This document shows, one piece after another, positions 126-4,163 of a stretch of DNA of 4,163 nucleotides. How positions within the stretch are numbered: position 1 is the first letter of the stretch; each line of letters begins with the position of its first letter. The stretch is from the IMG/VR virus record IMGVR_UViG_2740892423_000018. One strand, given 5' to 3'. Both the position numbers and the translations under genes were made by a program. The notes under the pieces are model-generated. The model had not been told where the DNA came from and searched no databases. It saw only the letters and a list, made by a program, of their open reading frames with translations. The stretch is from a virus. Taxonomy: Duplodnaviria; Heunggongvirae; Uroviricota; Caudoviricetes.

Positions 126-467
126 ATGATTACTAAAAATTTCCGACTGAATGCGCTGGCGAATAAGTATGCGTCGGCACTGTATAACCACATTACCTCC
201 ACCAGCGGCGGGGACTATTTCATGGTTGATGCGGACGGCCTCGCCGTCCGTGTGGAAATCGTCAATGGAGTAAAAGGCGTTCGCAGCCTGATCGATAGCT
301 ACACACTGGCAGCCATGAAAGTGTTCTACCCGCAGTGGGAAACCGTGGGGATCGAGCTTCTTGATCGTTGCGTCACTAAGGACGGATTGACTGACGTCGG
401 GCGCGAGATATGGCAAAGCATGATTAATGATATGGGCGCGACCGTGGCAGGAGGCAACCATGCGTAA
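126..467 (+). CDS. hypothetical small protein (113 aa), translationally coupled to the downstream primase gene
   Basis: ATG at 126 preceded by GAGGA (114-118) at 7-nt spacing. Protein-like composition with no low-complexity runs. Stop TAA 465-467 overlaps the primase start ATG 460-462 (ATGCGTAA). Same strand as all neighbouring genes. No recognisable motif. Confidence 0.6.
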   Translation: MITKNFRLNALANKYASALYNHITSTSGGDYFMVDADGLAVRVEIVNGVKGVRSLIDSYTLAAMKVFYPQWETVGIELLDRCVTKDGLTDVGREIWQSMINDMGATVAGGNHA

Positions 468-3219
468 TATCGACCTTATCCGCGAAGTGACCAGCGCCGC
501 AGCAGGGCGCTGGCCTTATGTGCTGGCTGGATTGTCTATCGACGTGCCTGATTCATCGCGCCGCCATTCTCCATGCCCTGCATGTGGTGGAAAAGACCGT
601 TTCAGATTCGACGACAACGGGCGCGGTAGCTTTATCTGCAACCAGTGTGGCGCTGGTGACGGGCTGGATTTAATCAAGCGGGTTAACAACTGCGACACTA
701 CGGAGGCGGCACAGCTTGCCGCTGACGTGCTGGGTATTGATTACCGGGCAGCGCAAACCGACCCGGTGGCAGCGAGCCATAGAAGAGAGCAACTGGAAGC
801 TGACCGCCAGCAGCGTGAGCAGGAGCGCCAGAAACAGGCAGCAGAGGACGCAGAGCAGCGAAGGGCTACGTTTGCCCGTCTGTATGCCGGAATGCGCCAG
901 AGTGTCACACAGGGCGAATCTGATTACCTGCAATCAAAAGGGCTGACCGGGTTTAATTACCCGGTTATGTCTGATGGTTCGCTACTCCTGCCGCTGGTGG
1001 ATGAATCCGGCGCAGTAGTGGCGGCGCAGACCATCACGCCGCAGGGAGATAAACGACTCCTGACAGGTTCAGCAAAGCGCGGGGCATATCACGCCGTAAA
1101 CGCGCCAGAATCGCCGCAGAGCGTTTTAATTGCCGAGGGGCTGGCGACGGCCCTTTCAGTTCACCTGATGCGCCCGGACGCGCTGGCAGTGGCAGCAATT
1201 GACGCGGGCAACCTGCTACCCGTTGCCGAAGTGATGCGCCGGAAGTATCCACAGGCACAAATAATCATCGCCGCAGACAACGACCACCACCAAAACGGAG
1301 AAGCCAATACAGGCAGGGAGGCCGCAGAGAAAGCCGCCTTGTCCGTGGCTGGATGGGTGGCACTGCCGCCGACAGACTACAAAGCCGACTGGAACGACCA
1401 CCACCAGCAAAACGGGCTGGAAGTCGCTACGGCTGCGTTTAACGACTCGATGTACCAGATTCAAGGGGAAGCCGTTAAACCACGATTGCAGGCCATTGAG
1501 GGCGGTAAAACTGACCATCCAGAGAAAGACCCACTAAAACCCCACATTGAGAGCCGAAAAGATGGCGTTTTCTGGGTAACGCCGAAGGTGGACAAGGAAA
1601 GCGGGGAGATCATCAACGCTGAAAGCTGGTTATGTTCACCGTTGGAGGTTATCGGCACGGGACGCGACGACAAAGATCAGTATCTTATTATCTCATGGCT
1701 GGCATTCGGTGCAGGCATACGGACAACAGCGGCTATCCCGCTGGCTGATATTGGCGAGCGTGAAGGCTGGCGCACCCTGAAAGCTGGTGGCGTCAACGTC
1801 ACAACGAAAAACAGCCTACGGGCGATTCTTGCCGACTGGTTACAGCGAAGCGGCTCGCGTGAATTGTGGCGCGTTGCTCATGCTACAGGCTGGCAGTGTG
1901 GGGCATACATCATGCCGGACGGGGAAATCATCGGCACACCTCAGCGGCCTGTTTTGTTCAGCGGGCGCAGTTCAGCCGCTGCCGGGTATACCGTAGCAGG
2001 AACGCCTGAAAGCTGGCTTAACAGTGTTGCGCGGCTGGCATACGGCAACTACGCGATGATGACAGGCATCGCCGCAGCACTGGCAGCGCCATTAATCGGG
2101 GTGGCAGATCGTGACGGATTCGGAATTCATTTTTATGAGCAATCGAGCGCCGGGAAAACAACCACGCAGAACGTGGCGAGCAGTCTTTACGGCAACCCTG
2201 ATGCCTTGCGCCTGACGTGGTATGGGACGGCGCTGGGGCTGATAAACGAGGCCGCCGCCCACAATGACGGGCTGATGCCGCTGGATGAAGTCGGACAGGG
2301 CGCAGACCCGATAAGCGTTTCTCAGTCTGCCTATGCCCTGTTTAACGGCGTGGGGAAATTGCAGGGAGCAAAGGAAGGAGGCAACCGGGATCTGAAACGC
2401 TGGCGCACCGTGGCAATCAGCACCGGGGAAATGGATTTAGAAACGTTCATCGCCACCGCAGGACGCAAGACAAAAGCGGGGCAACTGGTGCGACTGCTGA
2501 ATATCCCGCTGAGTAAGGCGGTGCGCTTTCATGAGCACCAGACAGGGAAAGATCACGCCGACGCGCTGAAAGACGCTTACCAGCACCATCATGGCGCTGC
2601 CGGGCGGGAGTGGATTAGATGGCTTTCAGACCACCAGCAGCAGGCGATTGATGCCGTTCGTGAGTGTGAAGCCCGATGGCGAAGTCTAATCCCTGCTGAC
2701 TATGGGGAACAGGTTCACCGTGTAGGGGCGAGGTTCGCCATTCTGGAGGCCGCTTTACTGCTGGGTGGCGTGGTTACTGGCTGGGATGCTCAAACGTGCC
2801 GTGATGCGATACAGCACAGCTACAATGCGTGGTTGCGTGAGTTCGGCACGGGGAACAAAGAGCACCAGCAGATTATTGAGCAGACGGAGGCGTTTTTGAA
2901 TGCCTATGGGCTGAGTAGATTCGCGCCGCTGGGTTATGACCCGCGCGATTTACCCATCCGTGATTTAGCCGGGTACAGGAAGAAGGGGAACCACGACGGC
3001 GACCCGATAATTTTCTACACCTTCCCGGCAACATTTGAGCAGGAGATCGCACGGGGTTTTAATGTCAGGCAGTTTGCCGAAGTTCTCAAGAATGCAGGAA
3101 TGCTAACACCACCAACGAGCGGGCGAGGTTATCAGGGGCGGGTAAGGGAAGGAGGGCGGCAAATTCGCGTTTATGTGCTCAACTTCATGGATGAGGAAAG
3201 CAGCCAGCCAGAAGAATAA
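460..3219 (+). CDS. primase/helicase-like replication initiation protein: N-terminal Cys4 zinc ribbon + TOPRIM (DnaG/P4-alpha-type) primase core + C-terminal P-loop NTPase region
   Basis: Open frame 427-3219. Preferred start is ATG 460 (MRNIDLIREV...) because AGGAGG at 449-454 sits 5 nt upstream; the ATG at 427 has no SD and would overlap the upstream ORF by 41 nt. Zinc ribbon CPAC...CNQC encoded at nt 574-648. TOPRIM glutamate motif IAEGLATA (nt 1129-1152, resembling the EGYATA motif of P4 alpha and plasmid primases) and DxD motif IIAADNDHH (nt 1261-1287). Walker A-like SSAGKTTT (GKT at nt 2152-2160) and Walker B-like LMPLDEV (DE at nt 2284-2289). Stop TAA 3217-3219. Confidence 0.88.
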   Translation: MRNIDLIREVTSAAAGRWPYVLAGLSIDVPDSSRRHSPCPACGGKDRFRFDDNGRGSFICNQCGAGDGLDLIKRVNNCDTTEAAQLAADVLGIDYRAAQTDPVAASHRREQLEADRQQREQERQKQAAEDAEQRRATFARLYAGMRQSVTQGESDYLQSKGLTGFNYPVMSDGSLLLPLVDESGAVVAAQTITPQGDKRLLTGSAKRGAYHAVNAPESPQSVLIAEGLATALSVHLMRPDALAVAAIDAGNLLPVAEVMRRKYPQAQIIIAADNDHHQNGEANTGREAAEKAALSVAGWVALPPTDYKADWNDHHQQNGLEVATAAFNDSMYQIQGEAVKPRLQAIEGGKTDHPEKDPLKPHIESRKDGVFWVTPKVDKESGEIINAESWLCSPLEVIGTGRDDKDQYLIISWLAFGAGIRTTAAIPLADIGEREGWRTLKAGGVNVTTKNSLRAILADWLQRSGSRELWRVAHATGWQCGAYIMPDGEIIGTPQRPVLFSGRSSAAAGYTVAGTPESWLNSVARLAYGNYAMMTGIAAALAAPLIGVADRDGFGIHFYEQSSAGKTTTQNVASSLYGNPDALRLTWYGTALGLINEAAAHNDGLMPLDEVGQGADPISVSQSAYALFNGVGKLQGAKEGGNRDLKRWRTVAISTGEMDLETFIATAGRKTKAGQLVRLLNIPLSKAVRFHEHQTGKDHADALKDAYQHHHGAAGREWIRWLSDHQQQAIDAVRECEARWRSLIPADYGEQVHRVGARFAILEAALLLGGVVTGWDAQTCRDAIQHSYNAWLREFGTGNKEHQQIIEQTEAFLNAYGLSRFAPLGYDPRDLPIRDLAGYRKKGNHDGDPIIFYTFPATFEQEIARGFNVRQFAEVLKNAGMLTPPTSGRGYQGRVREGGRQIRVYVLNFMDEESSQPEE

Positions 3220-3244
3220 TCTTTTTTCACATACGTAGTTTTAG

Positions 3245-3271
3245 TGTTGTCTCTGTTGTCTTTGTTGTCTC
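3245..3271. repeat. left triple-iteron block TGTTGTCTC-TGTTGTCTT-TGTTGTCTC (left arm of a 27-bp inverted repeat)
   Basis: Three head-to-tail 9-mers. Exact reverse complement of 3478-3504. Confidence 0.85.
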
Positions 3272-3316
3272 ATTTTGTAAGTTACATTGATTTATAAGGA
3301 TTTTATTTTAATTTCT
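3272..3316. other. AT-rich tract between iteron groups; candidate DNA unwinding element
   Basis: attttgtaagttacattgatttataaggattttattttaatttct is strongly AT-biased and lies between the left triple block and the direct iterons. A second AT-rich tract (ctatttttgtttatatacaaaaaaat, ~3505-3530) follows the right block. Confidence 0.4.
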
Positions 3317-3410
3317 GAGACAACATTGAGACAACATTTAGCCATTTTGAGACAACAGGGCGAACGTGTGTTTTTAGTCCGGCAGGCAGTGAGACAACAT
3401 TTATGCCGGG

Positions 3411-3442
3411 TGAGACAACACGAAATTGCAAATGTTGTCTCA
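3411..3442. repeat. inverted repeat TGAGACAACA-(12 bp)-TGTTGTCTCA built from two iterons in opposite orientation
   Basis: Arms 3411-3420 and 3433-3442 are perfect reverse complements; spacer cgaaattgcaaa (3421-3432). Confidence 0.8.
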
Positions 3443-3477
3443 GCAAAACCCAGACGTGGCGCGGCCTGTAGAGCCGT

Positions 3478-3504
3478 GAGACAACAAAGACAACAGAGAC
3501 AACA
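3478..3504. repeat. right triple-iteron block GAGACAACA-AAGACAACA-GAGACAACA (right arm of the 27-bp inverted repeat)
   Basis: Exact reverse complement of 3245-3271, including the variant middle unit. Confidence 0.85.
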
Positions 3505-3607
3505 CTATTTTTGTTTATATACAAAAAAATCTGGCGAAGGTGTCCCACAATAAGACGGTGCCGGGCAATCTTCATTAGCAAAACTAATAATTCGAGGTAT
3601 TCGCAAA

Positions 3608-4069
3608 ATGACAGCACAGATATCAGCCTACGGGCGGCTGGTGGCAGATCCCCAGACCAGAACGACAAACAGCGGCGGCAGCATGACAATGGGGCGTTTA
3701 GCGGTGGCACTGCCTTGCCATGCAGCAGAGGGCGGAGAGGTTACTTTCTGGCTGGGCGTGGTGGCATTCGGCAAACAGGCCGACGCACTGGCAGGACACG
3801 TTAAAGGCGATTTAGTCAGTGTTGCCGGAGCGATGCAGGTCAATCAGTGGGCGGGCAAGGATGGCGGTACACAGCAGGGGTATCAGGTAGTAGCCGACAG
3901 CGTGATCAGCGCCAGAACGGTACGCCCCGGCGGGAAGCGGGCCGAGTCAGTCAAAGCAAGTGGAGCCAGCAGGGGCCACGAAACGCAATCCGCGCCGGGA
4001 TGGGAGCTATATAACACCCCTGATGATTTTGACCAGCGCCCACCATTCGACGATGAAACGCCATTCTGA
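3608..4069 (+). CDS. ssb: single-stranded DNA-binding protein (SSB-like OB fold with acidic C-terminal tip)
   Basis: 153 aa. N-terminal region aligns by eye with E. coli SSB: ISAYGRLVADPQTRTTNSGG vs [20 protein letters not shown], and WLGVVAFGKQADALAGHVKGDLVSVAGAMQVNQW vs [35 protein letters not shown]. Gly/Ser/Pro-rich linker, then tail ...DDFDQRPPFDDETPF resembling the SSB tip DDDIPF. GAGG at 3594-3597 lies 10 nt upstream of ATG 3608. Stop TGA 4067-4069. Confidence 0.82.
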   Translation: MTAQISAYGRLVADPQTRTTNSGGSMTMGRLAVALPCHAAEGGEVTFWLGVVAFGKQADALAGHVKGDLVSVAGAMQVNQWAGKDGGTQQGYQVVADSVISARTVRPGGKRAESVKASGASRGHETQSAPGWELYNTPDDFDQRPPFDDETPF

Positions 4070-4080
4070 GGGGGGTGAAC

Positions 4081-4163
4081 ATGGTAAACGACAGCAAAGC
4101 TGAGGATCTGGAAGCAAAAGGGCTGTACCGACGCGCCGCCGCGCGATGGATGGAAGTCATGCT
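4081..4163 (+). CDS. 5' end of a small downstream gene (partial), possibly a PerC-family-like regulator
   Basis: ATG 4081 preceded by GAGGGGGG (4068-4075) at 5-nt spacing, overlapping the ssb stop. Translation MVNDSKAEDLEAKGLYRRAAARWMEVM runs off the window. The RRAAxRW-type N-terminus resembles, from memory only, PerC/Pch-like small regulators of enterobacterial prophages and islands; not verified. Confidence 0.45.
   Translation, partial: MVNDSKAEDLEAKGLYRRAAARWMEVM

Follow-up and report, generated by a model that had tools for sequence, protein, structure and literature searches.

The stretch of DNA analysed here (the window, 4,163 nt) carries on its plus strand a primase/helicase gene (460..3219), a gene for a protein that binds single-stranded DNA (ssb, 3608..4069) and the start of a PerC-family gene (4081..4163), with an iteron array, to which no strand was assigned, between the first two (3219..3530). 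RefSeq starts the primase at 460, while the longest open reading frame begins at 427; the protein matched the Pfam families Zn_Ribbon_Prim, Toprim_3 and DUF927 as well as the DNA primase family PHROG 1139 (E = 7e-178), and its RefSeq product is named 'TOPRIM and DUF927 domain-containing protein'. The iteron array directly follows the primase stop at 3219. It consists of about 13 copies of TGAGACAACA/TGTTGTCTCA in both orientations (3245-3504). Two inverted 54-nt arms (3219-3272 and 3477-3530) enclose the copies, and the one on the right ends in an A/T-rich stretch. The array is presumably the ori of the element, bound by the adjacent primase-helicase. The initial annotation had placed ssb immediately after an origin, and the array upstream of the gene is real as a sequence feature. 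The only Rfam matches in the window, two to plant miRNAs that fell far short of the gathering scores (E = 0.27 and 0.52) and covered the ori's long inverted repeat, were discarded as hairpin artefacts.

The ssb reading frame opens with ATG, encodes 153 amino acids plus a stop codon and ends in TPDDFDQRPPFDDETPF (also given as GWELYNTPDDFDQRPPFDDETPF and APGWELYNTPDDFDQRPPFDDETPF). A Shine-Dalgarno-like GAGG(T), read from the sequence, lies at 3594..3598 on the plus strand, 9-10 nt 5' of the start codon. The PerC gene starts 11 nt 3' of the ssb stop and runs off the window; it was recognised by Pfam (102 bits) and is the RefSeq coding sequence directly after ssb at loci L001 and L002. In L001 it spans 16063-16374 and has its own GGGGGG-rich ribosome-binding site, and a PerC gene follows the SSB gene in many, not all, related loci. 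A scan of 3150-4163 found no promoter-like or terminator-like site on the plus strand and thus offered no grounds for a promoter of ssb's own. Since no such site lies between primase and ssb, the 'co-regulation' with replication proposed earlier would most simply mean that primase and ssb share a transcript running through the ori.

To the reading frame at 3608-4069 an SSB-like OB-fold core, a flexible linker and an acidic terminal tip had been ascribed, and a profile search for the SSB family was the natural check. Pfam SSB (PF00436) matched residues 4-99 with 52.6 bits, above the cut-off of 26, and the protein also matched PHROG 44 'single strand DNA binding protein' (E = 2e-28). At L001 and L002 the RefSeq product is likewise 'single-stranded DNA-binding protein' (WP_016244018.1), and the L002 reading frame is 100% identical to the window protein at the protein level. 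Among the NCBIfam models, 15 SSB models matched weakly. The full-length ssb model TIGR00621 scored 50.8 bits, below its cut-off of 53.95, with residues 7-153 aligned, tail included; this shortfall of 3 bits was the sole tested feature of bacterial SSBs that the protein missed, and by its alignment it indicates a divergent lineage rather than a non-member. A sequence search of the PDB returned SSBs as the top matches (E ~5e-9).

The predicted structure gave the same picture. An AlphaFold2 model built from a 55-sequence alignment was confident over residues 1-100 (block pLDDT 89-96) and poorly defined over residues 101-153 (48-63). Its strands (residues 4-11, 16-19, 25-36, 44-54, 69-82 and 88-101) and its helix (55-62) are arranged as in an OB fold, a five-stranded barrel with a helix between strands 3 and 4 (order strand-strand-strand-helix-strand-strand). 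When the PDB was searched with Foldseek, the 50 best matches were all bacterial SSB OB domains, with TM-scores normalised by target length of ~0.65-0.84. The protein is only 24% identical to E. coli SSB, whose reference sequence was checked to be identical to PDB 1eqq. In alignment A1 three of the four ssDNA-stacking aromatic residues of E. coli SSB are kept, W48, F54 and W81 corresponding to W54, F60 and W88, whereas E. coli W40 is replaced by C37 and H55 by L49. We therefore delimited an ssDNA-binding OB domain at residues 1-103 (3608..3916, plus strand) from the AlphaFold2 model, Foldseek, the aromatic residues and a pN/pS of 0.18. Judged by profiles and predicted fold, the product is a genuine member of the SSB family, and the OB-fold core proposed at the outset was borne out by Pfam, AlphaFold2 and Foldseek alike.

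Residues 104-138 (3917..4021, plus strand) form the linker, which is predicted to be disordered: the low pLDDT (48-63) agrees with the flexible linker read earlier from the sequence. It opens with a conserved RTVRPGG and is otherwise variable, with a pN/pS of 0.48 and a column entropy in the close family of ~1.9 bits, compared with 0.4 bits for the OB domain. The close family comprises 116 distinct full-length relatives of roughly at least 62% identity, and two linker types occur in it. Within otherwise variable surroundings the window protein carries a hydrophobic motif, APGWELY (residues 129-135; 3992-4012), at which AlphaFold placed a low-confidence helical turn. The pattern APGWE[IL]Y is present in ~60% of the close relatives, and the rest have the other linker type, GQQGQATDALRRA.

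The C-terminal tail has two recognisable parts on the plus strand. The tip FDDETPF (residues 147-153; 4046..4066) was identified by its alignment with FDDDIPF of E. coli SSB, in agreement with the initial annotation, and is preceded by an acidic/aromatic motif, DDFDQRPP (residues 139-146; 4022..4045), which was delimited by family conservation. An extra DDFD element had been described 10 residues upstream of the tip; the element is there (residues 139-142; nt 4022-4033), but its start lies 8 residues before that of FDDETPF. From PP onward the tail runs parallel to that of the host (PP-FDDETPF against PPMDFDDDIPF), so that by alignment the likeness to the host tail is closer than had been stated. 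The tip is acidic and Pro-Phe-ended as expected of an SSB-Ct, with Thr at -3. We considered and rejected Q-R-P-P-F as a beta-clamp-binding motif of the QL[SD]LF type, because Pro occupies the usual Leu positions.

Conservation within the close family was strongest upstream of the extreme tip. D142 and Q143 (97% each), P146 (93%), D149 (88%) and P145 (83%) were the most conserved positions; in the tip, F/D/D were 78-88% conserved and E150, T151 and P152 were variable. The element [FY]DQ was found in 107 of the 116 close relatives (92%), and DQx[PQ]P[FY][DEN][DE] in 99. The bipartite tail suggested earlier is thus supported as a sequence feature. Almost all relatives (99/116) end in Phe, and 55 (47%) in Pro-Phe; the endings include ETPF (32), EDPF (11), DDDF (11), EAQF (8) and EDDF (7), and about half of the family lacks the penultimate Pro, with ends such as DDDF, EAQF or DDGF. 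In E. coli the ssb-113 mutation (P176S) disrupts partner binding, which shows that the penultimate Pro matters. The description of the tip as 'host-mimicking' therefore holds for its alignment to PPMDFDDDIPF and fails as to fidelity, given Thr at -3 and a penultimate Pro in 55 of 116 relatives. These same two features suggest that host docking may be weakened. Docking of the tail to host partners, through which the element could join or compete for the host SSB interactome as the initial annotation proposed, is plausible, possibly in a weakened form.

When 1.84 billion cluster representatives were searched exhaustively, 4828 relatives passed E <= 0.001. Where the best-scoring 150 of these 4828 representatives are complete, they are short SSBs of ~130-160 aa, and most have the canonical ending [PD]F[DN]Dx[IL]PF; 43 of the 51 Pro-Phe-ended tips in this best-scoring set have Ile, Leu or Val at -3, and [FY]DQ occurred in only 3 of the 150 representatives. 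Since the canonical tip prevails in the wider clade and [FY]DQ is rare there, the canonical tip is ancestral, and the Enterobacterales clade has relaxed the tip and added a conserved upstream element. This combination of a conserved [FY]DQxPP element and a relaxed tip is what is new here, to a modest degree.

The gene is under purifying selection. Computed on six alleles of 153 aa, pN/pS was 0.27 over the whole of ssb. The OB domain and the last 15 codons both had a value of 0.18, the linker one of 0.48. Because the value of the tail equals that of the OB domain, the tail is as constrained as the fold.

The window matched 388 of 5426 complete E. coli genomes and was chromosomal in all of them (423 of 423 places). 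In strains SW07096 and PCN061 it lies inside an island of ~13.2 kb between yicC and dinD. The island starts with a tyrosine integrase, an AlpA-family HTH protein (PF05930, 34.5 bits), an AntA antirepressor, an Ash/Icd-like gene and small genes of unknown function, and continues with the primase, the iteron array, the SSB, PerC and a PRiA4_ORF3 protein; at L001 and L002 all genes except the last are on one strand. A 27-nt att-like direct repeat with 2 mismatches, GTGTACACAA..GTGTACCCAATGAG, is present at both island ends. In L001 its copies lie at ~5768-5794 and ~18903-18929, the left one overlapping the integrase start codon. The island thus has the traits by which phage satellites of the PICI type are recognised: int, alpA and pri, unidirectional genes, a presumed ori after pri, a length of 10-20 kb and att repeats. 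Neither annotation nor Pfam revealed capsid or packaging genes 3' of PerC in L001 and L002. Late/capsid genes are found in 21 of 29 reference Gram-negative PICIs and are not obligatory; the published zones of these elements are integration, Bro-N, replication and late (PMC10111431). By gene content and order we assign the island to the Gram-negative PICI-type phage satellites, whose published layout it shares.

An SSB in the replication zone of PICIs is already known: 'Primase, SSB and DUF5906' genes were reported to lie together with the ori that was mapped downstream of pri (PMC10111431), and the idea as such is not new. Our literature search found no paper characterising a PICI SSB experimentally. 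In the same study, the genes named as essential to the transfer of PICIs are just int, alpA and pri (PMC10111431), which implies that the island SSB may be dispensable. A second island, in CFT073 (roxA/phoQ; SSB WP_000126698), resembles the window island in gene order (int, AlpA-type HTH, Icd-like, primase, SSB, PerC), and its ssb is ~70% identical in DNA to that of the window over the OB-domain part. It differs in having a shorter primase of another type and in carrying capsid genes, and its SSB (136 aa) has a canonical ...GDDIPF end without [FY]DQxPP.

Relatives of the OB-domain part of ssb are present in 1654 of the 5426 complete E. coli genomes (~30%), and full-length copies occur in many Enterobacterales genera. 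Up to 6 places per E. coli genome matched this part of the SSB lineage, so in many strains several satellite SSB genes accompany the essential host gene. We examined 36 SSB loci from other Enterobacterales for synteny with the primase. A relative of the window primase was present in 31, and in nearly every case the SSB was the next gene after it. Across the 36 loci, tail and primase variants diverge together, as expected of neighbouring genes. In five loci (L004, L006, L008, L018 and L019) the primase shares the N-terminal Zn-ribbon/TOPRIM part (~aa 1-355 or 1-394) with that of the window and has a C-terminal half unrelated to the DUF927 half, while the SSB is kept; comparison of these sequences points to domain swapping within the replication module. 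One case was informative as to tail and primase: the tail FDDEDPF is common to L003 and L004 despite the unrelated C-terminal helicase halves of their primases. Truncated or frameshifted SSB copies were seen in Rosenbergiella, Raoultella and Tatumella (L034-L038), in decaying islands. A few plasmids, mostly predicted to be non-mobilizable, carry SSB relatives.

When the whole window was compared by megablast with 50,697 phage records, no match resulted, and a protein search of the same records returned only distant SSBs of at most 37% identity, mostly from Staphylococcus phages. An origin of ssb by borrowing from a sequenced helper phage was rejected on these grounds. An SSB of the plasmid leading-region type was also rejected, given a score of 18.6 bits against a cut-off of 265 for NF010292 and the chromosomal location of the matches; no conjugation genes were found in the island at L001 and L002.

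It has been known for decades that plasmids and phages can encode SSBs with an SSB-Ct-like tip. The island SSB has the Pfam family, OB fold, disordered linker and acidic tail in common with E. coli SSB (PDB 1eqq/1eyg). It is shorter (153 against 178 aa), with a charged linker of ~35 residues where that of E. coli has ~55 and is Gly/Gln/Pro-rich; positions -4/-3 of the tip are Glu-Thr instead of Asp-Ile, and only the island SSB has the DDFDQR element upstream of the tip. SsbF of the F plasmid is, like the island SSB, an element-encoded homologue of the host protein, and it partially complements chromosomal ssb mutants (PMC9849209). It differs in belonging to a conjugative leading region and in being expressed upon ssDNA entry. 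The SSB-like protein Bas52_0087, also encoded by an invader, keeps the E. coli tip FDDDIPF (bioRxiv 10.64898/2026.04.29.721553); in contrast to the island SSB it has two OB folds and the exact host tip and lies outside a satellite replication module. A small SSB-like partner likewise accompanies the Cch DUF927-type helicase of SCCmec (PMC7581432, PMC10061031). The window primase matched the Cch1 model weakly (31.7 bits). The SCCmec operons differ in their hosts and in having an unrelated primase (A-family polymerase plus MP), and we know of no canonical SSB-Ct tail on the SCCmec SSB-like proteins.

We are nearly certain that the gene encodes a functional SSB of the island replication module. 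As to the tail, docking to host partners is probably its main role, by analogy with characterised SSBs: the SSB-Ct is described as the docking site of many partners (PMC10164576), and the F-plasmid SSB provides the precedent (PMC9849209). Taken together, a replication-module SSB with a host-partner docking tail is the likely account of the protein. Upon induction, the island would be transcribed in one direction, and read-through across the ori would let ssb be expressed along with the primase. The SSB, probably a homotetramer, would coat the ssDNA opened by the island helicase at the ori and also that formed during amplification of the excised island, and would thereby supplement a limited host SSB pool. 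Its PP-FDDETPF may dock in the pockets by which host proteins missing from the island's own gene set, for example Pol III chi or PriA, bind an SSB-Ct, after which the host replisome could act on the SSB-coated island DNA. The clade-specific [FY]DQxPP may add a second contact or extra negative charge.

The tail, in particular its clade-specific [FY]DQxPP[FY]DD core, might instead dock mainly to the island's own primase-helicase, its likeness to the host tip being ancestral rather than mimicry. The best-conserved tail positions, D142, Q143 and P146, lie outside the extreme tip as this reading would expect, and the SSB almost always adjoins a related primase. The Pro-less ends DDDF, DDGF and EAQF found in half of the family also resemble the type of tail seen on T7 gp2.5, where an acidic, Phe-ended tail serves the T7 polymerase and helicase. 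The lineage is moreover island-specific, being distant both from the phage SSBs and from the host protein (at most 37% and 24% identity, respectively), and the small SSB-like partners of the SCCmec primases and helicases (PMC7581432, PMC10061031) offer a parallel. However, the same FDDEDPF goes with unrelated primase helicase halves in L003 and L004, and the wider short-SSB clade has the canonical [PD]FDDx[IL]PF, which argues that host-type docking is ancestral; we regard a tail that serves mainly the island's own replisome as unlikely. Somewhat less probable still is that the Enterobacterales satellite SSBs have evolved a two-part tail, in which a relaxed PP[FY]DD...F tip is joined by a strictly conserved [FY]DQxPP devoted to contact with one of the satellite's own proteins, for instance the primase-helicase. 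If this were true, one SSB would bridge the private helicase of the satellite to selected partners from the host replisome, and the satellite's replisome would be shielded against competing pathways of helper phage or host.

A main role in perturbing host or helper-phage ssDNA metabolism, rather than in replication, is also conceivable: the protein might sequester SSB-interacting proteins or displace host SSB, with helper interference, nuclease blunting or incidental triggering of defence among the possible ends. The phage SSB-like protein with FDDDIPF, for which competition with SbcB/ExoI or its displacement was proposed and which triggers the DRT10 defence system (bioRxiv 10.64898/2026.04.29.721553), is a precedent for such effects, and helper interference is common among satellites (PMC10111431). 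Yet the gene sits in the replication zone beside ori and primase and not in the variable accessory zones, its intact OB fold and ssDNA-binding aromatic residues point to ordinary ssDNA coating, and no sequence feature requires a decoy, so that these means and ends all appear improbable to us, as does the role itself. That ssb is a decaying or functionless passenger is very improbable: truncated copies do exist in some genomes (L034-L038) and SSB is absent from the genes reported essential for PICI transfer (PMC10111431), but a pN/pS of 0.18 in both OB domain and tail, together with the full-length copies across Enterobacterales genera and the spread of relatives within E. coli (1654 of 5426 genomes), speaks against it.

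In the preferred reading, that of a replication-module SSB with a host-docking tail, the protein is an ordinary one. Given its RefSeq name and the published PICI SSB genes, the finding is already known in kind. Its value lies mainly in correct annotation, namely that the satellite brings its own SSB in a compact primase-ori-SSB module. Should the tail discriminate between host partners or bind the island primase, the module would make a small, tractable model of mixed satellite replisome assembly.

Two further observations concern the surroundings of the module. Enterobacterial-type SSB modules of 63-64% identity were also found in sequences assigned to a Candidatus Paceibacterota MAG (L014) and to Chryseobacterium sp. 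18061 (L016), the latter with a primase 85% identical to that of the window; both taxon assignments likely reflect assembly contamination or misbinning. At the other end of the module, a mosaic breakpoint coincides with the primase ATG at 460: when the 15 best matches in E. coli are compared, 14 start exactly there, and only one strain also shares the upstream stretch 18-459 with the window. A 113-aa reading frame of unknown function (126-467; PHROG 37628), which overlaps the start of the longest primase reading frame at 427, is accordingly a separately exchanged module, since the matches begin at 460.
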